Virus record (IMG/VR): IMGVR_UViG_3300045988_104662
Direction: 5' to 3' (one strand)
Length of the DNA: 40,027 bases
Source: a virus
Program-made: the position numbers and the translations under genes
Shown here: one piece after another, positions 7,355-38,639 of the stretch
How positions within the stretch are numbered: position 1 is the stretch's first letter
Layout of the letters: the number at the start of each line of letters is the position of its first letter
The notes under the pieces: model-generated
Seen by the model: only the letters and a program-made list of their open reading frames with translations
Databases searched by the model: none
Told to the model about the DNA's origin: nothing

Positions 7355-7927
7355 ATGACCACCACCAGCACCAAGCCGGAAGCGCTCCTATGGATCGACG
7401 TGGAGACCACCGGCCCCGACCGCACCACAGCGCAGATCCTCGAAATCGGCATGGCCTGCACCGACAGCACCGCCACCCAGGACTACGGCGCCTTCCACGC
7501 GATCGTCAAACCCGACATCCTCGACATCAGCCGCATCACACCCTTGGCATGGGAGCACCACACAGCCAACGGCCTCATCGCCGAAGTCCGCGCCGCCAGC
7601 ACACGCCAGAACGGCCCAGCCGCCGTAGGCAACGCCGCGGAGGAATACCTCGAATCACTCGAACAACGGTTCCAGCTCGTACCAACCGGCACCAACGTCG
7701 ACTTCGACCTCGGATTCCTCGGACTCCTCGCCATCGACACCAGCCCGCTCAGCTACCGAAAACTCTACCTGACCACCATCAGACGCCTCATCACCATCCT
7801 CGGAGGACCCGACCCCTACGCGACCCACCACGAAGGCCGACACCGCGTCGAGGACTGCATCACCAGAGACATCCACGACTACCGCCACTACCTCGAAACC
7901 ATCCAACTCAAGGACTGCGGCAAATGA
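7355..7927 (+). CDS. DEDDh-type 3'-5' exonuclease (DnaQ/oligoribonuclease-like)
   Basis: Exo I motif LLWIDVETTG, a later TNVDFD motif, and a C-terminal H..VEDC. Confidence 0.7.
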   Translation: MTTTSTKPEALLWIDVETTGPDRTTAQILEIGMACTDSTATQDYGAFHAIVKPDILDISRITPLAWEHHTANGLIAEVRAASTRQNGPAAVGNAAEEYLESLEQRFQLVPTGTNVDFDLGFLGLLAIDTSPLSYRKLYLTTIRRLITILGGPDPYATHHEGRHRVEDCITRDIHDYRHYLETIQLKDCGK

Positions 7928-7943
7928 AACGGAAAGGCGGACG

Positions 7944-8036
7944 ATGGACGGACTCGCCGCATTCATCCTGCTCGCCGCGGTCTTCATCGCATGGCTCGGC
8001 GGAGACCACGACGGCCCTGCGGGACCACGGAAATGA
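7944..8036 (+). CDS. Small hydrophobic peptide (30 aa)
   Basis: MDGLAAFILLAAVFIAWLGGDHDGPAGPRK. A GAAAGG lies upstream. It fills the gap between flanking genes and is below the ORF-track cutoff. Confidence 0.35.
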   Translation: MDGLAAFILLAAVFIAWLGGDHDGPAGPRK

Positions 8037-8061
8037 CACCCCAACCACGAAAGGAAACACA

Positions 8062-8565
8062 ATGAGCGTGCTCTACCACGGAGGAGCCCCCGACCTCCAA
8101 CCCGGAGACCACATCGAACCAGGCCACAGCCGCGACATCCACGACGATTGCCCGATCTGCCGCGCCAGACGCGAAAAAGGCGCGGACGCGATCGAAGGCA
8201 CCGGACACCCCGAACAGGTGTACTGCACCAGATACCGCGACTACGCCGCCCTCTACGCGTCGATGTACGGCAAGGGCGACGTGTACCAGGTGCGGCCCGT
8301 CGGAGAGCTCGAAGCTTCCGACGAGGACTTCGACGGCTGCTACCGGTGCGACCGGCTGGTGATCGTCAGAGCCGTCGAAAGACACGTCACCCTCACACCG
8401 AAACGCCGCCGCAAGGTCATCCGCCTCATGCAACGCCTGGACGACGGCCCCTGCATCAACCCACTGCCACGCAACGCCACCCCGCAGATGGTCGAAAAGT
8501 TCATCCAACGCTCCGCCGCCGACACCATGCACATCATGCGCCAGGCCGAAAGGAGCATCCGATGA
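8062..8565 (+). CDS. Arr-like (rifampin ADP-ribosyltransferase family) domain protein
   Basis: Compared from memory with Arr: LYHGGAPDLQPGDHIEPG vs FYHGTKANLAIGDLL..G; KGDVYQVRPVGELEASDED vs GYIYIVEPTGPFEDDPN; YRCDRLVIVRAVE vs YRTCEPLRIVGVVE. It also carries a CPIC-containing insertion. Confidence 0.55.
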   Translation: MSVLYHGGAPDLQPGDHIEPGHSRDIHDDCPICRARREKGADAIEGTGHPEQVYCTRYRDYAALYASMYGKGDVYQVRPVGELEASDEDFDGCYRCDRLVIVRAVERHVTLTPKRRRKVIRLMQRLDDGPCINPLPRNATPQMVEKFIQRSAADTMHIMRQAERSIR

Positions 8566-29834: not shown

Positions 29835-30085
29835 TGAAGTCTGACGGTTACTCGAAGTACGTGTGCGACAAGTGCGGCAAGACCGCGTATGTCGCAGCTG
29901 GCGATACGGAGGCGCGTGAATGGTTCACCGTGCGCCGGTATTCCGCTGGCAAGGCGACCCGCATCGCGGATGATGTGACGCCTGACATCTACGAATTGTG
30001 CTCCCAGTGCAATGCGTCTTTCATGGCGTTCATGCAGAAGGACGACGCTTCTTTTGAAGCATGGTTGAAGGAGGCTGAACAGTGA
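29834..30085 (+). CDS. Small Zn-ribbon protein
   Basis: 83 aa with CDKC ... CSQC pairs. Confidence 0.45.
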   Translation: MKSDGYSKYVCDKCGKTAYVAAGDTEAREWFTVRRYSAGKATRIADDVTPDIYELCSQCNASFMAFMQKDDASFEAWLKEAEQ

Positions 30086-30867
30086 CCATCGAACTTGTTG
30101 ACGGCAAAGCCGGAGTCGCGCACATCTCGAGCGAGGACAAGGCGATCATCCATCAGGCCAAGTTTTCGAAGTCCGACGTGGTGTTCGACTGGGGCGACGC
30201 GTTCAAGTGTTCGATGAGTTCGCCCAACAGGGCGACGATCGGCACCGGCTGCGCGTCGATTCAAGGCTTGGACTGGCATATCACGGCGGCGGAATCCGTG
30301 ACGATCTCCAACGGGTCGCAGGGCGTGAAACGCAATGACATCATCTGCGCGCATTACCATCGAGATTCCAAGACCGGTAATGAGCTGGTGGAATTGACCG
30401 TGTTGAAGGGCACGCCGAACGCGACGACTGCCGCCGACCCGACCATTCCGTCAGGGAAGATACTGTCCGGCGCGGTTGACGCGTACATGCCGTTGTGGCG
30501 TATCCCATTGGACGGTATCACGGTCGGCACTCCGGTGCGCCTGTTCACGCCGAAGGGGGCTTTGTGGGATTCCGTAACCCAACCGTGGAAACCGCCGTAT
30601 ACGAACAACAGCCTCACGCTGTGTCGGGTCGGACGCACAGTCACGGTCAACGGCAACGTCAAGTTCACCGGCAGCGGAGTGCAGAACTACGCGATGGCGG
30701 TTGAGACCATCCCTGAAGCGTTCCGCCCACTCGCCGATCAGAGCATCATCGCGTTCCCGTCCTGCGGTTTCAGCCTGCTTGTCATGCGTGACGGGAAGGT
30801 GCAGATGCTTGGCGACCCGAAATCCGCCTACTCCACGGCGCACGGCTGCTGGATAACAGCACAGTAG
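30082..30867 (+). CDS. Receptor-binding / tail fibre protein: constant part (aa 1 to ~161) plus the currently expressed variable cassette V0
   Basis: 261 aa. Crossover site R0 lies in frame at codons W162-D-S-V-T. The C-terminal 95 aa resemble silent cassette A (IPEAFRPL...DGKVQMLGD vs LPEAYRPP...NGIIRVANM). Confidence 0.75.
   Translation: MTIELVDGKAGVAHISSEDKAIIHQAKFSKSDVVFDWGDAFKCSMSSPNRATIGTGCASIQGLDWHITAAESVTISNGSQGVKRNDIICAHYHRDSKTGNELVELTVLKGTPNATTAADPTIPSGKILSGAVDAYMPLWRIPLDGITVGTPVRLFTPKGALWDSVTQPWKPPYTNNSLTLCRVGRTVTVNGNVKFTGSGVQNYAMAVETIPEAFRPLADQSIIAFPSCGFSLLVMRDGKVQMLGDPKSAYSTAHGCWITAQ
30565..30580 (+). repeat. Shufflon site R0 (expression site): tgg gat tcc gta acc c
   Basis: Lies in frame in the RBP gene and reads W D S V T. 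It shares the 11-nt core ttccgtaaccc with R1-R3. Confidence 0.75.
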
Positions 30868-30880
30868 CTTTCCGTAACCC
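30865..30880 (+). repeat. Shufflon site R1: tag ctt tcc gta acc c
   Basis: The 16-mer is identical to R2 and to R3 on the opposite strand. Its TAG is the stop codon of the RBP gene. Confidence 0.8.
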
Positions 30881-31164
30881 TCTATAATGCCGATGGTTTC
30901 GTTGTCATCAAAGCCGGAATATTGATGCTCGTGAAGTTTAGCGGCGCGATAGGGGTCGGAAGCTGGGATGCGAAACAGTGCAAGTATGTTCTGCCGGAAG
31001 CGTATAGGCCGCCAATCGAGGTCAACAGCATGTGCTGCGTCGCGAATGGCCAGACCGCGCGAACGCTTATCGTACAGGCCAACGGTATCATCCGGGTAGC
31101 CAACATGGGATCGACTGGTAGCAGCCAAGGTTGCGTCGGAACTGTCGTATACCCAATCTGCTAG
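30881..31164 (+). other. Silent C-terminal cassette A
   Basis: Open from R1 to the TAG of R2, in the same frame as the RBP gene. No convincing RBS or start of its own. Confidence 0.7.
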
Positions 31165-31177
31165 CTTTCCGTAACCC
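31162..31177 (+). repeat. Shufflon site R2: tag ctt tcc gta acc c
   Basis: Identical 16-mer. Its TAG terminates cassette A. Confidence 0.8.
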
Positions 31178-31500
31178 TCACCAAGACGAACACTAACTGG
31201 AATGTGGATTACCGTACCGCGCTGGTCGGCAAGATGCTGATAGTCGCATTCCACGCCACACGCCTCAACTCCGACTGGAATGCTGCGAAGGAGTGGGAGA
31301 TATCCCAGCTTTTCACGCTACCAACCGGCTTGGAGGCGGCTTTCGAGGTGCATTGCGCCGCCGTGTCCAATTCCAGCGTCGGGCTGCATGGCGTCGAAGT
31401 GCAGACCGCGGGCAACGCCATCGCCCTCCGCTCGTCGGAGAAGATGACGATCGGCAAGGGCGGATGGGTCGAGGGATGCATCACGGTGCCGCTCGCCTAG
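31178..31500 (+). other. Silent C-terminal cassette B
   Basis: Open from R2 to the TAG at 31498-31500, in the same frame. No RBS. Confidence 0.7.
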
Positions 31501-31843
31501 GCGAATGTCACGCCATCTGGCACGGGGATAATCTTCGAGAAGCATTGGATGACATCGTTTGGCCCTACACCGCCGATGAGGACCACCGACCCGTCCGTGT
31601 TCCAAGTCGCCTGTTTTCCGTACGCGATGCCGGCCACATTCGCGACGCACCCCAAACTGACCGCTTTGGAGGGTTTCACACCCGATTTGAACGTCCAGAC
31701 GGTGAAGTTGCCGGTGTTCACGGCGCTTCGGAACGATGACAGGTCAACGAAGATCAGACCATCCCTGACCTTGATGGTGTTCGAAGCGCTGTAAGGCGCC
31801 GGAACGAACGAGCCGGTGGACTGCCATTGTAATTGGCACGTCT
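31497..31843 (-). other. Silent C-terminal cassette C (inverted)
   Basis: On the minus strand it is open from R3 (LSVT QTCQLQWQSTGSF...) to a TAG. It converges with cassette B at the palindrome cctagg. Confidence 0.7.
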
Positions 31844-31859
31844 GGGTTACGGAAAGCTA
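31844..31859 (-). repeat. Shufflon site R3 (inverted), abutting the recombinase stop codon
   Basis: gggttacggaaagcta is the reverse complement of tagctttccgtaaccc. It lies 1 nt from the TGA of the recombinase gene. Confidence 0.8.
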
Positions 31860-31860
31860 T

Positions 31861-32733
31861 TCAGCAGGTCAACACCAGTCGTTGCCATGCTCGCTGCATG
31901 TCCTTGAGGACGCTCAGATCAGGCTTCAAATAATACCTTGCGGTGGTCTGGATGTCGGAATGGCCGAGCTGTCGTGCGACCACGCTGATGTCGGTGCCCG
32001 CCTTGATTGCCAGCGTGCCGAACGTGTGACGCAGATTGCGTGGCGGGACAGAGGGTAGTTTCATTCGCTGGCACCATGACTTGTAACGGTTAGCGACTTG
32101 GTTCGCGTTCAGATTGCCGACCAGTCTGCCGGTCTTCGTGCCGTGCCGTAGTTCCGCCAACCGTTTGACGGCAAATCGCGGCAACGCCACGGTTCGACGG
32201 CTCAAATCGGTCTTCGGCTCGGTGACCGTCTCATGTCCTGCGACCCACTGCACGGAACGTTTGACTGTTACCGTGCCACGCCGCAGGTCAAGGTCAGACC
32301 ATTCGATGCCGACCGACTCGCAACGGCGCAAACCGGCGCATACCGACACCAACAGCCATGCTTCGAGCGGATGCCCGTAGAAGCCTTTCAACAGCTTGCG
32401 CACCTCCTGCGCCGACAACACTCGCGGCTCATAGTGACGTAGGCGGGGGAGTCTGATTTCCCTTCTGGTCACATCATTGTCCGTCATGCCGCGCCGGAAC
32501 GCGAGCCTGAGAATCGCACGGAACACGGCCCATGCTTTTCGCGCCGCTCCCGGCTTGTCGAAGGAGTCCAACCATGATTCGATGTCCGCCACCGTGATCG
32601 AGTCCAGGTCTTTTCCGCTCCATTGTGGGAGGATATGACGGTTCAGGGCGCTTTCATATCCCACTAGAGTGCATTCGCGGAGTTTCGCGCATGAGGGTTT
32701 CCAAACAGTGGATGCGAATGTGCCGAAAAGCAT
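31861..32733 (-). CDS. Shufflon-type tyrosine recombinase (Rci/Rin-like)
   Basis: ATG at 32733 with GGGAAGGA 5 nt upstream. 290 aa. Motifs AGLRRCE, NLRHTFGT, LGHSDIQTTARYY. It sits inside the tail-fibre region and is distinct from int. Confidence 0.85.
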   Translation of the reverse strand: MLFGTFASTVWKPSCAKLRECTLVGYESALNRHILPQWSGKDLDSITVADIESWLDSFDKPGAARKAWAVFRAILRLAFRRGMTDNDVTRREIRLPRLRHYEPRVLSAQEVRKLLKGFYGHPLEAWLLVSVCAGLRRCESVGIEWSDLDLRRGTVTVKRSVQWVAGHETVTEPKTDLSRRTVALPRFAVKRLAELRHGTKTGRLVGNLNANQVANRYKSWCQRMKLPSVPPRNLRHTFGTLAIKAGTDISVVARQLGHSDIQTTARYYLKPDLSVLKDMQRAWQRLVLTC

Positions 32734-32847
32734 TGGTTCCTTCCCGATTATTGTTGAATAATCCCACACATTGTCGTGTTGCCGTTGGCCTGACATGCGT
32801 GTGGGTTTCTTATTGTTTCACATCCATGATTCTCCGTTCATGTTTTT

Positions 32848-32877
32848 AAACCCGTCGATTTCGACGGGTTTTGTTTT
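32848..32877. terminator. Hairpin plus T-run between the recombinase and the next tail gene
   Basis: aaacccgtcga-tt-tcgacgggttt is followed by tgttttt on the + strand. Confidence 0.55.
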
Positions 32878-32902
32878 TAACGCTTCTTTTAAGGAGGATG
32901 TT

Positions 32903-33301
32903 TTGACTCAGATCAAATTCGATTTCGGCCATCCGAGTGCGGATGGCATCGCCGACTTGGCCGGTGAGACGGTTCACGTGATTCCGACGAGCCGTTTCAA
33001 CAGCGGTAAGCGCATCGTGGTGCGTGACTCGTTCGAGGTGAGACTGGACGAGTATGGCACCGCGACCGTCACCGTTCCGCCGACCGATAACACGTTCGCC
33101 TACGAGGTGACCATCGGCGATAGCGCCGATTCATGGCGGTTCATTCGCGTCGTGCAGGTGCCGGATTCGACTTCGGTGTTGAATTTCTCCGATCTGGTTG
33201 AAGTTGATTCTACCACGCTCACGCCGGTGGGTACCGGCAATCCGTTGGCTGACATCGACCAGTCCGACATCGACTGGGCGTTGGCCGCCATCCGCAACTG
33301 A
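32903..33301 (+). CDS. Minor tail / fibre-associated hypothetical protein
   Basis: TTG start with AAGGAGGA 4-5 nt upstream. 132 aa. Lies directly upstream of the DGR target gene. Confidence 0.55.
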   Translation: MTQIKFDFGHPSADGIADLAGETVHVIPTSRFNSGKRIVVRDSFEVRLDEYGTATVTVPPTDNTFAYEVTIGDSADSWRFIRVVQVPDSTSVLNFSDLVEVDSTTLTPVGTGNPLADIDQSDIDWALAAIRN

Positions 33302-33314
33302 GAAAGGACAGAAA

Positions 33315-34898
33315 ATGGCAAATCCGGACAAGTTCATCCGCCTGCGCGATTTCGCGAAGATCATGCGCGCCCTGCGCGAGACCGACGTGGACGGCACGAC
33401 CTTCCATTACGACGAATCGAAGCACGAATACGCGAATGTCAAGGAGTTCTACAGTCAGCACCGCTCCGGCCGAATCTACGGCGTGCAGTTCCCTCGCTAC
33501 TCCTTCTCCCATGTGCCCACAGGCGCGAAGACCCACGACAACGCAAACCTGTCCGTGACGGTATCCACCGCCGCGAACGCCGGACGCGACGACTACGCCT
33601 ACCTCAACGCCTTCCAATGGCGCGATGTGAACGCCACCGTGGACGACTCCGGCGTGCCGCACATCACCGCCATCGAAGGGGACAGCCGATTCCGCCGCGA
33701 CGGATCCAACGGAGACGTGTTCGTCATGGTCGCGCCCGGATATTTCCGCATCGACGGAGACGACAACCACATCGAACTGCTTTACAGCGACGAGCAGTAC
33801 GACGGCTTCGAACCGATGCCGGGACTGCTCCTGCCGGACGGCACCGAACGCCCATGCCTGCTGTTCGCGAAATACGCGGCATCCCTGTCCGGCGGCATAC
33901 CGCGCTCCTGGAGCAGCCAGAAGATCGACCCCGGCTTCGGCTGCCAGAACGACCAGATCGACCTCGCCCTGAAAAAGGGCAAGGGGTACGCCGGCCAATG
34001 CCAGCCGGACGTCTTCTACTTCCAGCTGATGCTCATGCTGAAATTCGCCACCAAGGACATGGAGGCGGCGCTCGGCGGCTGCTTCGAAAACTACATGGCT
34101 CAGGGGCCGGTCACCAAGGCCGAATCCAACGCCAAACGCGTCATCATCGCCAAGGACACCGCCGACAACATCCTCGTCGGATCCACCATCAACATCGGCA
34201 CCGACAAGGAACGCAACAACAGCGGCAACCACTCCATGGCCGAGGCCCGCACCGTCCTGTCCAAGACCACCATCGACGCGACGAACGTGGCCCTCAACAT
34301 CGACGGCGCCGCCATCACCACCACGACCACCGCGTTCGTCAGCACCATGCCGTGGAAGACCGGCGCCACCGACTCCATCCGCGGCAGGGGAGACGGACGC
34401 CCGCAGGCCGACCACGCCGGATGGCAGCCGGTGCGTCTGCAGGGCATCGAACGCGGCAACGGCATCTACGAGGTCGACGCGGACGCCATCGTCAACGCCT
34501 ACAAGGACGCCGACGGCATCGGCCACACCGCCCTCTACCTCGTGCACGACATCACCAAGGCATCCAAGACCAGCACCGACAACTACACTCTCGTAGGCGA
34601 GTTTCCGACCCGCGACAAGACCAACGACTCGAGCTCGCGCTTCGCCGAGGACTTCAACGTCGTCGACGGGCGCGTGTTCCTGCCGACCGGCATCGGCGCC
34701 ACCTCCAGCACCGGCCTCACCGACGCCGTCTATGCCAATCCGGTCCAGGCACAGGGGCTCCGACAGGTGCTCCGGTTCGGCGTTCTCGGTGTTGGCTCGT
34801 TCTGCGGCGCGTTCCGCGCGTACCTGGGCAGGGACCTGTCGAGCCGCGGGTGGGACATCGGCGGCCGCCTATCCGCGCTCGGCCGCTCGAAGGCATGA
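33315..34898 (+). CDS. DGR target protein (distal tail / receptor-binding candidate) with C-terminal variable region
   Basis: ATG at 33315 with a GAAAGGA RBS. 527 aa. VR occupies the last ~40 codons: ...VLRFGVLGVGSFCGAFRAYLGRDLSSRGWDIGGRL, a C-type-lectin-like DGR VR pattern. Confidence 0.85.
   Translation: MANPDKFIRLRDFAKIMRALRETDVDGTTFHYDESKHEYANVKEFYSQHRSGRIYGVQFPRYSFSHVPTGAKTHDNANLSVTVSTAANAGRDDYAYLNAFQWRDVNATVDDSGVPHITAIEGDSRFRRDGSNGDVFVMVAPGYFRIDGDDNHIELLYSDEQYDGFEPMPGLLLPDGTERPCLLFAKYAASLSGGIPRSWSSQKIDPGFGCQNDQIDLALKKGKGYAGQCQPDVFYFQLMLMLKFATKDMEAALGGCFENYMAQGPVTKAESNAKRVIIAKDTADNILVGSTINIGTDKERNNSGNHSMAEARTVLSKTTIDATNVALNIDGAAITTTTTAFVSTMPWKTGATDSIRGRGDGRPQADHAGWQPVRLQGIERGNGIYEVDADAIVNAYKDADGIGHTALYLVHDITKASKTSTDNYTLVGEFPTRDKTNDSSSRFAEDFNVVDGRVFLPTGIGATSSTGLTDAVYANPVQAQGLRQVLRFGVLGVGSFCGAFRAYLGRDLSSRGWDIGGRLSALGRSKA
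34767..34868 (+). repeat. DGR variable repeat (VR)
   Basis: Aligns without gaps over 102 bp to 35005..35106. There are 15 mismatches, all opposite a TR adenine, and 0 mismatches at C, G or T. Confidence 0.9.
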
Positions 34899-34926
34899 GC
34901 CAAGAGCGGTGAGGGGTGAGCGCAGC

Positions 34927-34946
34927 GAGGGGGCGCAAGCCCCCTC
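34927..34946 (+). promoter_or_regulatory. GC hairpin downstream of VR (candidate DGR target-recognition stem-loop)
   Basis: gagggggc-gcaa-gccccctc: an 8-bp stem and 4-nt loop, about 60 nt after the end of VR/TR homology. No T-run follows it. Confidence 0.55.
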
Positions 34947-35004
34947 ATCGTCCCGCTGAAAAACATGTGGGACTCGGAGTGGCGCGCCTACCGTCCTTCG
35001 CGTC

Positions 35005-35106
35005 GTGCACCGGTTCGGCAATCTCAGTGATGGCTCGAACTGCGGCGCGTTCCACGCGAACCTGAACAGGGACCTGACGAACCGCAGGTGGAACATCGGC
35101 GGCCGC
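35005..35106 (+). repeat. DGR template repeat (TR)
   Basis: Contains 21 adenines, 15 of them substituted in VR. Four AAC codons and one AAT codon in the VR frame (VHRFGNLSDGSNCGAFHANLNRDLTNRRWNIGGR). Homology ends in the GC-only run cggcggccgc. Confidence 0.9.
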
Positions 35107-35280
35107 ATACCTGGACAATCCTGTCGAAAACATCAGAACACTCCGATTACCGTCGGCCACGATCTAAGCCAGACGGCATGCCACGGCCAGATCCGAAAAT
35201 GCAACACGAGCACGCGGCCGGTAGATGAACCCATCCAGCCACATCGACAGCCGCGCAAAGTCCAGATAGGAACAGCTCAA

Positions 35281-36384
35281 TTGAAAACCTACTGCCGTCA
35301 CACGCATTGCGGCACACCGGCCTTCGTCAGGAAGGCCATAGACCATTACCTGCAAGGCAAAACATCAAGACGCGACGTCACGAGATTCCTGGAACACCAC
35401 CCGGACCTCGACGACCTCGCCATCAGACTCGCCGGCCAGATCAGGACCGGCGGATTCGACCATCCACGTATCCGATACTTCAACCGTGTCGAACCGATTT
35501 CCGGCAAGCATCGCGTCATCGGCCGTGAGGCCGTCGAACAGCAGATCCTCGACCACGTCGCGGTCATCGCCCTCATGCCCTTGTTCGACGCGAAGATAGG
35601 ACGATGGCAGACCGCGAGCATCCCGGACCGCGGCACCAACGACGCACGACGTGTCATCCGCAAATGGATCCGCGAACCATCGAGCAAAGTCTTCGTCAAA
35701 CTCGATGTGCGCAAATGCTATCCATCGATTGATCGGCCGACGCTCAAGGCGATGCTCTCGCACGACGTCGGCGACATGACGCTCCTGCGCCTCGTCTTCC
35801 ACCTCATCGACTCCTACGCCGGCGATAACGGCCTGAACATCGGCAGCTACCTCAGCCAATACCTGGCGAATTATTACCTGTCGTCCATCTGGCACTTCTG
35901 CGAGCACGGACTCACCAAAACCAGACGGCACAGGGACGGCACCACCACGAAGCGAAGGCTCGTCACCCACGTCCTCTTCTACATGGACGACATCCTGCTG
36001 CTCGGACGCTCGAAACGCGACCTGTCGATCGCGGCAAGACGCATCACCACCTTCGCGCACGACCGGCTCAAACTCGACATGCACCCCGAATGGAACGTCA
36101 AGCACGTCGGCATCGAACCAATCGACATGGTCGGCTACACGTTCCGGCCCGGCCGGACGAACATCAGACCCGGCATATTCCTGCGAGCCGGACGGACCTT
36201 CGCCAGATTCCGCCGACACCCAAGGAACCTGACACTGGCGCGCAGATGCGCCAGCTACTACGGATACTTCATCCACTCCGACTCGACGCTCGTGCGCCGC
36301 CGCCGGCAGGTGGACAAGACAATGCGCATGGCCAAGCGGACGCTGGCCCGCGCCAACCAACAACCAAGGAAGGAAAAAAGATGA
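35281..36384 (+). CDS. DGR reverse transcriptase (start uncertain; TTG 35281 proposed)
   Basis: Motifs LDVRKCYPSID, NIGSYLSQYLANYYL (the DGR-typical [ILV]GxxxSQ), FYMDDILLLG, IDMVGYTF. There is no in-frame ATG or GTG before the RT motifs. TTG 35281 has AGGAA about 8 nt upstream. Confidence 0.85.
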   Translation: MKTYCRHTHCGTPAFVRKAIDHYLQGKTSRRDVTRFLEHHPDLDDLAIRLAGQIRTGGFDHPRIRYFNRVEPISGKHRVIGREAVEQQILDHVAVIALMPLFDAKIGRWQTASIPDRGTNDARRVIRKWIREPSSKVFVKLDVRKCYPSIDRPTLKAMLSHDVGDMTLLRLVFHLIDSYAGDNGLNIGSYLSQYLANYYLSSIWHFCEHGLTKTRRHRDGTTTKRRLVTHVLFYMDDILLLGRSKRDLSIAARRITTFAHDRLKLDMHPEWNVKHVGIEPIDMVGYTFRPGRTNIRPGIFLRAGRTFARFRRHPRNLTLARRCASYYGYFIHSDSTLVRRRRQVDKTMRMAKRTLARANQQPRKEKR

Positions 36385-36749
36385 GCAAACTCGTCACCAG
36401 CGCCACACCGCTGGAAAAGGTCGAATACTTCAGGCGGGGCGACGGCCTCGCCGACATCTGGCTCCGCGAGGACATCAAGCAGGTCCAGCATCTCGGCACC
36501 GATGGCACCGAGACCACCGAATACACGGCGCAGGAAACCTACCTGTGCCGCGACCTGACCGAACAGGAGGCGGTCGAGCAATTCGACAGCCTCATCCAAT
36601 CGGCCGAGATCGAATCGATGGACGACAAGGAGCGCATCGCACAGCTCGAGCAGCAGGCCGTCGACAACGCCACCGCCATCGCGGCCCTCTACGAGGCGCA
36701 ACTCACCACAGCGTCCGCCAACGATGCCGGAGCAAAGGAGCAAGCATGA
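36381..36749 (+). CDS. Acidic hypothetical protein
   Basis: 122 aa. ATGA overlap with the RT stop. Strongly acidic, so unlike Avd. Confidence 0.5.
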   Translation: MSKLVTSATPLEKVEYFRRGDGLADIWLREDIKQVQHLGTDGTETTEYTAQETYLCRDLTEQEAVEQFDSLIQSAEIESMDDKERIAQLEQQAVDNATAIAALYEAQLTTASANDAGAKEQA

Positions 36750-36889
36750 ACACCCTGCAGCAAGCCATGATCGCCATCTACGCCAACCTCGTCCGCTCCG
36801 GAGCCCGCACCATCGACTCCATCCCCAAAAACCTGCGCGACGAAGTCCAGAAGCGCCTCGACCCATGGAGCTCGGACGACGCCGCTTAA
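36746..36889 (+). CDS. Small hypothetical protein
   Basis: 47 aa with an ATGA overlap. Confidence 0.4.
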   Translation: MNTLQQAMIAIYANLVRSGARTIDSIPKNLRDEVQKRLDPWSSDDAA

Positions 36890-36950
36890 CCTCTTTTCAA
36901 GCACGGAATTCTGGACGTCTCTCATCGTCGCCCTGATCGGCGGTGGAGGA

Positions 36951-37268
36951 GTGGGTGCCATCATCGGCGCCATCTCCAGCAGACGCAAGGACACCGCGGA
37001 CATCGCCGCGAAGGCTTGCGACATCCTCACCGATTCCGTCATCAAGCCTTTGAGGGAACAGGTCGAGTCGCAGGAGGAGCAGATCCAGCACCTGGAGGAT
37101 CAGCAGCGAAAATACTTCGCGCTCGCCGCATACACGAGGCAGCTGTTCCATTGGTTGCAACAGTTCTGCGAGATCGTCGAGCCCGATTTCCTCAAGCGGC
37201 ATCCGAAACCGCACCTGCCGGACGAGCTGCGCGCCGACGTGGCGCCGGAGACCGTGGAGGACGCATGA
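36951..37268 (+). CDS. Coiled-coil protein of the lysis region (true start uncertain)
   Basis: 105 aa from GTG 36951. The frame stays open upstream to ~36888 and encodes a TM-like FWTSLIVALIGGGGVGAIIGAI, but with no canonical start codon. Confidence 0.4.
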   Translation: MGAIIGAISSRRKDTADIAAKACDILTDSVIKPLREQVESQEEQIQHLEDQQRKYFALAAYTRQLFHWLQQFCEIVEPDFLKRHPKPHLPDELRADVAPETVEDA

Positions 37269-37336
37269 CCTTCGTCATCGCCTGGATCGGTCTCGTCGCG
37301 CTCGTCCTGTTTTTCAATCGTGGCGCCCACATGTGA
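37265..37336 (+). CDS. Small hydrophobic peptide (23 aa)
   Basis: MTFVIAWIGLVALVLFFNRGAHM with an ATGA overlap. Confidence 0.35.
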   Translation: MTFVIAWIGLVALVLFFNRGAHM

Positions 37337-37400
37337 CGCCATCAACCATGAAACCACGCGTGAAAACGTGGGGTTTCCCGTTTTCAGAGAAAGGAAATGA

Positions 37401-38639
37401 ATGCGCAAGCACAAGCCTCCGTGGCTCAAACGAATCCGGCTGGCGGTGACCGGCGTGGTCATGGCCATCACCATGGCCGTAGCGCCCGCCGCGATGGCCG
37501 ACCTGAACGGATACGACGTATCCGGCTACCAGGCCCCGGACATCACGCAGGTCGCTCCGGCCGACTTCGCGATCGTCAAGGTCAACCAGGGCTGGTACAT
37601 CAACTCCAGCTGGGGCCAGCAAGCATCCGGCGCCGTCAACACCGGCAAGGAGCTAGGCCTGTACGATTACGCGTCCGGAATGGACGCCACGACCGAAGCC
37701 GACAACTTCGTCAACCACATCACCGGATACGTCGGCAAGGCCATGCTCGTCCTCGACTGGGAGCCATATCAGAACGCCGCGTGGGGCAACAGCAACTGGG
37801 TGCGGACGTGGGTATACCGCGTCCACGCCAGGACGGGAGTGTGGCCCGTCGTCTACTGCTCCAAGGGCTTCGTCGACCAGATACCGGCGGACGTCCGAGC
37901 CAAGTGCATGCTGTGGGCGGCGCAGTACGCCAACAACTACGCGACCGGCTACCAGGACTCCCCATGGCTCGCCGGATCGCAGGGCGAAGGCATGCTCCAG
38001 TACACGAGCACTGGCTACCTCAACGGACATGGACCGCTCGACCTCGACAAATTCTTCGGAGACAGGACGGCATGGCGCAAGATCGCCTGCGGCGAACGCG
38101 CCGGCTGCTCCACCACCGGAGGATCCACCGGCACGCCGAACGTCCACGTGGAGAAGCGGACGACCAACACCACCGACCTGAACGCCATGGCCACCGCCGT
38201 CATCCGCGGCGATTACGGCAACGGCGCCGATCGGCAGTCCCGTCTCGGCGACAACTACCAGGCGGTGATGAACATCGTCAACAGCCGCCTGTCCGGTTCG
38301 ACGTACTCCGGCCCGACCACCGTGACCCGCACGACGACCCGCACCTACGTGGTCCGCTCCGGCGACACCGTGTCGGCCATCGCCGAGCGCACCGGCCTCA
38401 AGCCGGCCTCCGCATGGCGCGTGCCGTCCGGCAACATCAACCGGATCTACGTCGGCCAGACGATCACCTACTACGGCTCGTCCACCGTCTCCACGCCGTC
38501 CACGACCTACTCGTCCACGCACGTGGTCAGCGCAGGCGAGAGCCTGTGGAAGATCTACGGATCCGGCTGGTACGCCGCGGCCCAGCGCAACGGCCTCCGT
38601 CCGCCGTACACCATCTATCCAGGCCAGCGGCTCCGCTGA
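37401..38639 (+). CDS. Endolysin: signal peptide, GH25 muramidase, CW_7-like repeat, two LysM-like repeats
   Basis: N-terminus MRKHKPPWLKRIRLAVTGVVMAITMAVAPAAMA/DL. GH25-like segment GYDVSGYQ...FAIVKVNQG...LGLYDYA. LNAMATAVIRGDYGNGADRQSRLG. YVVRSGDTVSAIAERTG and HVVSAGESLWKIYG. Confidence 0.8.
   Translation: MRKHKPPWLKRIRLAVTGVVMAITMAVAPAAMADLNGYDVSGYQAPDITQVAPADFAIVKVNQGWYINSSWGQQASGAVNTGKELGLYDYASGMDATTEADNFVNHITGYVGKAMLVLDWEPYQNAAWGNSNWVRTWVYRVHARTGVWPVVYCSKGFVDQIPADVRAKCMLWAAQYANNYATGYQDSPWLAGSQGEGMLQYTSTGYLNGHGPLDLDKFFGDRTAWRKIACGERAGCSTTGGSTGTPNVHVEKRTTNTTDLNAMATAVIRGDYGNGADRQSRLGDNYQAVMNIVNSRLSGSTYSGPTTVTRTTTRTYVVRSGDTVSAIAERTGLKPASAWRVPSGNINRIYVGQTITYYGSSTVSTPSTTYSSTHVVSAGESLWKIYGSGWYAAAQRNGLRPPYTIYPGQRLR

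Follow-up and report, generated by a model that had tools for sequence, protein, structure and literature searches.

The 40,027-nucleotide (nt) stretch of viral DNA analysed here (the window; IMG/VR virus record IMGVR_UViG_3300045988_104662) very probably carries a diversity-generating retroelement (DGR) of a temperate Bifidobacterium siphovirus, which diversifies the 3' end of a tail-fibre-like gene. The cassette lies on the plus strand and comprises a target gene encoding 527 amino acids (aa; 33315..34898, starting with ATG at 33315), a variable repeat (VR; 34767..34868) within the 3' end of this gene, a non-coding template repeat (TR; 35005..35106) and a reverse transcriptase (RT) gene (35281..36384). 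The element is recognized by the anatomy of its repeats, the adenine specificity of their differences, the codon design of the template, the type of its RT, the structure of the RNA in the spacer between TR and RT, and the hypervariation of the population at the columns that correspond to TR adenines. Judged by comparison with its relatives, the DGR was apparently active very recently.

Position-by-position comparison of 34767-34868 with 35005-35106, without gaps, gives 87 identities over 102 positions, with all 15 mismatches at adenines of the downstream copy and none at its C, G or T positions, exactly as the original prediction had read from a manual alignment. The TR contains 21 adenines, 15 of which are substituted in the VR (hypergeometric P = 1.6e-13 for 15 of 15 mismatches falling on adenines). 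The prediction had also described the changes as A>G and A>T, which is correct as to type; there are 8 A>G, 7 A>T and 0 A>C changes. The pair is the largest direct repeat within 32000-38000, and a repeat finder extends it to 105 nt (34767-34871 / 35005-35109). Neither a second copy of the TR scaffold nor a remote VR was found when both strands were searched elsewhere in the window.

After the last variable adenine, the repeat ends in an invariant GC-rich segment that resembles the initiation of mutagenic homing (IMH) element of known DGRs. In the VR, this IMH-like end (34858..34871, + strand) reads TCGGCGGCCGC followed by CTA, while its IMH*-like counterpart in the TR (35096-35109, + strand) ends in ATA, and the homology stops after position 103. 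At this position the TR has A and the VR has C in all 10 of the 10 relatives compared, such that the base following the GC-rich end is C in every VR and A in every TR, the sequence pattern that distinguishes IMH from IMH*. As it is constant across relatives, this A/C difference corresponds to a fixed IMH/IMH* difference marking the end of the mutagenized stretch and not to mutagenesis. By analogy with the Bordetella model (PMC5758913), the IMH-like end of the VR would be the site where homing initiates.

The placement of the adenines within codons fits the diversification of a protein. The VR is in frame from codon 485 of the target gene and covers codons 485-518, in agreement with the earlier assignment of the upstream copy to the 3' end of the 527-aa gene; its variable columns run from 34771 to 34857. 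Relative to the TR, 12 codons and 12 residues are altered, the codon count being the one originally given. The template includes five AAC codons, where the prediction had counted four, and one AAT codon, and all six are altered in the VR. Each of the 21 TR adenines occupies codon position 1 or 2 in the VR frame, no stop codon can be reached by substituting them, and the coding repertoire of the TR amounts to 1.7e12 peptides.

The RT gene begins with a TTG codon 175 nt downstream of the TR on the same strand, within a target-to-RT gap of 382 nt that contains the TR and whose first 106 nt, from the target stop to the TR (34899-35004), are geneless. Its 367-aa product matches RVT_1 (E 1e-11) and the RT family phrog_1423 (E 1e-71), and can be aligned with Brt of Bordetella phage BPP-1 with 29% identity over 320 residues (E 5e-27). 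The open reading frame (ORF) is intact and encodes the motifs IGSYLSQ at residues 187-193 and YMDD at residues 234-237. A longer ORF starting at 35005, which would fuse the TR to the RT, is disrupted in relatives by indels of 1-2 nt just upstream of the TTG, and tblastn aligns the relatives from RT residue 1.

Eleven viral contigs and one metagenome-assembled genome (MAG) bear the same RT at 91-99% identity. Among these close relatives the TRs are near-identical (near-invariant in 10 of them), while each VR is distinct and varies in the TR-adenine columns. When B. imperatoris and metagenomic members, which are more remote, are added, there are 28 distinct VR/TR pairs, in which 303 of 318 mismatches (95%) are found at TR adenines, corresponding to 0.61 per adenine site versus 0.006 per other site. 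The substituting bases across these pairs are G (179), T (96) and C (28). At the protein level, 26 full-length sequences from the 90% cluster and close loci display 26 different VR peptides. Averaged over columns, their entropy reaches 1.96 bits for the 15 adenine-bearing codons, compared to 0.06 bits at the other VR codons and 0.08 bits at residues 1-484, and the 20 most variable of the 527 positions include every one of these 15.

The original prediction had proposed that, in a functional DGR, polymorphism should be limited to the template adenines while the TR remains conserved, and that identical VRs in relatives, or changes at other bases at a comparable frequency, would speak against one. 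The relatives bear out the former and show neither of the latter, which supports recent mutagenic homing. The DGR assignment itself is supported by the intact adjoining RT of DGR type, by the placement of adenines in codons, and by VRs that vary next to a near-invariant TR. The nearest relative, contig L012, gives the finest resolution: it is 99.58% identical to the window over 6 kb, with 25 differences, of which 13 are located in the 102-nt VR, all of them in TR-adenine columns, while the TR is identical (binomial P = 4e-17). Since the other 5.9 kb hold only 12 differences, this comparison points to a very recent turnover of the VR.

Two other relatives depart from this pattern. In the IMG/VR relative L009, the segment in the place of the TR (L009:3725-3826) is eight positions off the family consensus, all of them consensus adenines that have changed, and the VR has six non-adenine differences from its own TR. 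It looks as if this TR had been overwritten by mutagenized complementary DNA (cDNA) or had recombined with a VR, either of which would disable the element. In the relative L019, the RT (L019:3129-3998) lacks residues ~190-297 through an internal deletion, and the VR still differs from the TR at 13 adenines; this DGR has decayed but retains traces of its past activity.

Several points weigh against this reading. No Avd or HRDC accessory gene is detected among the cassette genes or the 44 small ORFs of the window (PF05635, HRDC), the VR domain cannot be assigned to the C-type lectin (CLec) fold with Pfam, Foldseek or hhalign, and the activity of the window copy is deduced from comparison with its relatives. 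The likeliest alternative is a fossil element, in which the VR was diversified in the past and the window copy is now inactive. The absence of Avd and the decay of the two relatives, with an RT deletion in one and eight template adenines changed together with non-adenine VR differences in the other, are compatible with this scenario, but the window RT is intact with its catalytic motifs, the window TR is equal to the family consensus TR, and the VR differences from L012 imply very recent turnover; we consider a fossil quite improbable. It is still far less probable that the RT stems from another retroelement, such as a group II intron, a retron or a defence RT, and that the repeat is unrelated to it. 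The matches that would suggest such an origin, to the NCBIfam models for group II intron RT (60 bits, cut-off 300) and Drt3a (28 bits, cut-off 200), are far under their thresholds, and Rfam finds no group II intron or retron RNA, whereas the IGxxxSQ motif is of DGR type, the alignment with Brt runs end to end, and the VR-TR-RT order is conserved across species. Finally, the pair could be a common duplication that has diverged, or a tract of partial gene conversion, with a coincidental adenine bias; only the existence of a repeat speaks for this. It is refuted by the hypergeometric test, by the same bias in 28 independent pairs and by the comparison with L012, and the adjoining RT and a TR that stays invariant while the VR varies also speak against it, leaving it a negligible probability.

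With a DGR as the favored assignment, diversification would proceed as follows. The RT (35281-36384) would use as its template an RNA spanning the TR (35005-35106) and the structured spacer (35146-35257), and would misincorporate nucleotides opposite template adenines. The mutagenized cDNA would then take the place of the VR (34767-34868) in the target gene, at its 3' end. The TR would stay unchanged because the GC-rich IMH-like end confers directionality. The outcome would be up to ~1.7e12 variants of a 34-residue C-terminal surface, differing at 15 positions, and these variants would most likely alter receptor binding and host range. Priming of cDNA synthesis from the spacer RNA, IMH-directed homing and a receptor-binding role of the target are here transferred from BPP-1.

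The spacer between TR and RT contains the Rfam motif RT-19 (RF03073) at 35146..35257 on the + strand, detected by cmscan with 77.7 bits (E 1e-15). The match covers model positions 1-99 of 99 and is 0.6 bits under the gathering score of 78.3, while its orthologues in relatives score 80.4-104.5 bits and are always located ~40 nt past the TR. In an alignment of seven divergent copies, 98.2% of the cells are compatible with the paired structure, compared to 34-40% pairing for slid controls, and both partners have changed in 8 of 16 pairs. In BPP-1, cDNA synthesis is primed by the spacer RNA, which also wraps around the complex of RT and Avd (bioRxiv 10.1101/2023.10.23.563531), and by analogy we infer a similar role for the RT-19 RNA. 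Covariation between the TR 3' end and the spacer, as expected for a BPP-1-like template:primer duplex, was inspected by eye, and none was seen beyond the internal RT-19 stem. Weinberg et al. 2017 tied only the motif RT-10 to a DGR, that of BPP-1, and speculated that other motifs of the RT series might belong to other DGRs (PMC5737381). In the window, the full-length model match likewise lies upstream of an RT gene; however, the publication gives the motifs other than RT-10 no role, while here RT-19 stands at a fixed distance of ~40 nt from a bona fide TR.

Two structures are predicted downstream of the VR. In single-sequence folding of this DNA, the immediate hairpin was no better than shuffled sequences (z = -0.66), and a comparative alignment was needed. 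The RNAalifold consensus of five divergent relatives contains a 7-bp stem, GCCGCTC / GAGCGGT, with a 15-nt loop (34882..34910, + strand), which spans the target stop and starts 11 nt past the end of the VR/TR homology. Two double changes in this stem keep the pairing (C-G to U-A and U-A to A-U), and it could form a target-recognition cruciform. The second structure is a GC-rich hairpin of 8 bp with a 4-nt loop, GAGGGGGC-GCAA-GCCCCCTC (34927..34946, + strand), located 59 nt after the VR. Its stem is near-invariant, with one G-C to G-U change in one relative, and its loop is GCAA, GAAA or CTAG; it is found in the same place in relatives with targets only ~60% identical. This hairpin corresponds to the GC-rich inverted repeat that 34% of curated DGRs have 3' of the VR. 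It lacks a T-run in the window and may be either a target-recognition cruciform or a terminator. A promoter and terminator scan of 34700-36500 returned nothing useful.

Regarding Avd, which the Bordetella BPP-1 system requires, no tblastn match to the BPP-1 protein had an E value below 2.5. Among curated DGRs, avd is present in 74% and lacking in 26%, and Avd is poorly conserved and not universal (PMC5758913). For the avd-less elements, Wu et al. 2018 proposed an Avd-independent mechanism and described a small acidic accessory gene, CH1, which occurs only in these DGRs (PMC5758913).

In the window, the RT gene is directly followed by a gene for a small acidic protein of 122 aa with an isoelectric point (pI) of 4.2 (36381..36749, + strand), whose start overlaps the RT stop (ATGA) in the window and in most relatives. 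The protein has no match in Pfam, the PDB or cultured phages. Wherever the genomic context was examined, which covered B. imperatoris, B. longum, B. pseudocatenulatum and metagenomes, homologues with 44-100% identity directly follow a DGR RT. A search for homologues apart from an RT found an RT in every context, and all contexts belong to one family of syntenic modules, so their co-occurrence is no proof of a role in the DGR. The acidic protein is thus either a candidate accessory factor or merely a syntenic phage gene. As in the avd-less CH1 DGRs (PMC5758913), genes for Avd, HRDC and MSL are absent, and a small acidic ORF is tightly linked to the RT; CH1 proteins have 160-169 aa, compared to 110-155 aa here, and the two are likened by description only. 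Further downstream, a 47-aa protein of the CD1375 family (36746-36889; NCBIfam NF040910, E 3e-13; phrog_1382) is kept in all relatives, and is followed by a 105-aa ORF (36951-37268) with no family match.

The target gene is placed between the tape-measure and tail genes and the lysis genes. Its product matches phrog_17147 (E 3e-84) and phrog_5302, annotated as 'tail protein' (E 1e-20), and homologues in nr are named 'tail collar fiber protein', while sequence searches of Pfam, NCBIfam and the PDB yielded no family. The full-length AlphaFold2 model was unusable, with a predicted local distance difference test (pLDDT) value of 38.5, and a usable model was obtained for the C-terminal 148 aa with a deeper alignment. 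This model is mostly beta, with a pLDDT of 77 and a predicted template-modelling (TM) score of 0.74, and the VR segment reaches only 59-75. Compared to the PDB with Foldseek, it has no match (best E 0.9, TM ≤0.2), but it matches tail fibres predicted for gut phages, crAss-like and others, with TM scores of 0.6-0.73 and E values down to 3e-7. When the last 148 residues served as the query of an exhaustive HMMER search, 90 distant relatives were retrieved, in proteins of 71-1263 aa, in the great majority of which the domain is C-terminal. Their common scaffold is G.REWL.FG.L..G..AGL...L...W.IGSRLS..GR.

The original prediction had read a C-type-lectin-like pattern in the variable peptide. This claim is not supported: alongside the searches of Pfam and the PDB and the Foldseek comparison, hhalign of the target with Mtd, the BPP-1 target, gave a probability of 0.3%. 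Because the VR segment is modelled with a pLDDT of only 59-75, the domain may have a divergent CLec fold. Roux et al. reported uncharacterized VR domains in phage tail fibres, which they suspected to be novel variants of this fold. In one homologue of the target (protein P0119), the C-terminus, NIGGRISGQSCQHDH..., resembles the translated TR and the sequence that follows it and not the end of a VR, which suggests a deletion between VR and TR by homologous recombination or a collapse of the assembly across the repeat.

Among the closest known systems, the DGR of BPP-1 (mtd-avd-TR-brt) shares with the window element a VR that forms the 3' part of a tail-fibre gene, the adenine-specific differences, a non-coding TR upstream of an RT on the same strand, a GC-rich IMH-like VR end, a structured TR-RT spacer, and the IGxxxSQ and YMDD motifs of an RT that is 29% identical to Brt. 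The window differs in having no avd between target and TR, in its spacer RNA (RT-19 instead of the RT-10 of BPP-1; PMC5737381), in a target without detectable similarity to Mtd, in a TR of 102 nt versus 134 nt, and in its host, a Gram-positive actinobacterium.

Tail-targeting DGRs in Bifidobacterium prophages have already been reported (PMC8705816; bioRxiv 10.64898/2026.02.18.706556; bioRxiv 10.1101/2020.04.01.020958), a 2026 count giving 26 of 286 B. longum prophages, and Bifidobacterium is among the DGR-bearing genera in Roux et al. As DGRs in such prophages are published, the window element belongs to a known kind. The accessible parts of these reports record the presence of the DGRs and describe neither how TR and VR are organized nor an absence of Avd, an RT-19 spacer or the fold of the VR. 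The same module, comprising a Rin-like invertase, a target of 523-527 aa, TR, RT, small genes and a GH25 lysin, is found in B. longum, B. pseudocatenulatum and B. imperatoris. In a direct comparison of the window, which covered the B. imperatoris and metagenomic loci, identity is ~60% for the target and ~66-69% for the RT. We regard as doubtful the proposal that these elements form an Avd-independent DGR lineage in which RT-19 and the acidic protein would replace Avd and its stem-loop, with a beta-rich C-terminal variable domain that has no solved relative and also occurs in tail fibres of gut phages, the crAss-like ones among them.

The window represents a nearly complete genome of a temperate siphovirus. 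It encodes an integrase (209-1486), an SPP1-type portal, capsid, tape measure, tail and tail tube proteins, a Dp-1-type holin and a GH25-CW_7-LysM endolysin (37401-38639). The early region contains genes for DUF4417, SSB, RNase_T-like exonuclease, MazG-like and Cro-like proteins, and the ORF at 7390-8565 has a weak, sub-threshold match to a rifampin ADP-ribosyltransferase domain (E 5e-4). Sequence matches identify Bifidobacterium as the host and the phage as a B. pseudocatenulatum-type prophage: the closest genome match is an uncultured Bifidobacterium MAG, the 90% protein cluster includes B. pseudocatenulatum WP_174768224.1, and homologues of ~60% identity are found in B. imperatoris, B. breve and B. 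reuteri. Against GenBank phages, megablast of the cassette retrieved nothing and tblastn only RTs, with ≤34% identity.

Directly upstream of the DGR target is an active Rin-type shufflon (30082-32796). In the Rin system published for bifidobacterial prophages, a tyrosine invertase is located next to short cassettes for the C-terminus of a receptor-binding protein (RBP), which are set apart by rix sites of ~11 bp, TTCCCTAACCC, and inversions take place between these sites (PMC6109161). The window has a tyrosine invertase gene (31861-32796, - strand; PF00589) and four rix-like sites, TTCCGTAACCC, three on the + strand (30569-30580, 30869-30880 and 31166-31177) and one on the - strand (31844-31855); the sites are located within the RBP-like gene 30082-30867 and at its end, and divide short cassettes. 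In the near-identical relatives L001, L002, L003 and L009, different segments are inverted with breakpoints at the rix-like sites; the contig L012 ends at 31844. The shufflon matches the Rin system.

The general picture of DGRs is unchanged by this element, which adds a DGR in a prophage of a genus that is important in the infant and adult gut. It places the orphan Rfam motif RT-19 in the spacer between the TR and RT of a DGR, and provides a candidate accessory gene and a variable domain without a solved relative. For DGR biology, it would represent a lineage naturally active without a recognizable Avd. Taken together with the adjacent Rin shufflon, the DGR would offer the phage two independent ways to change its adsorption apparatus.

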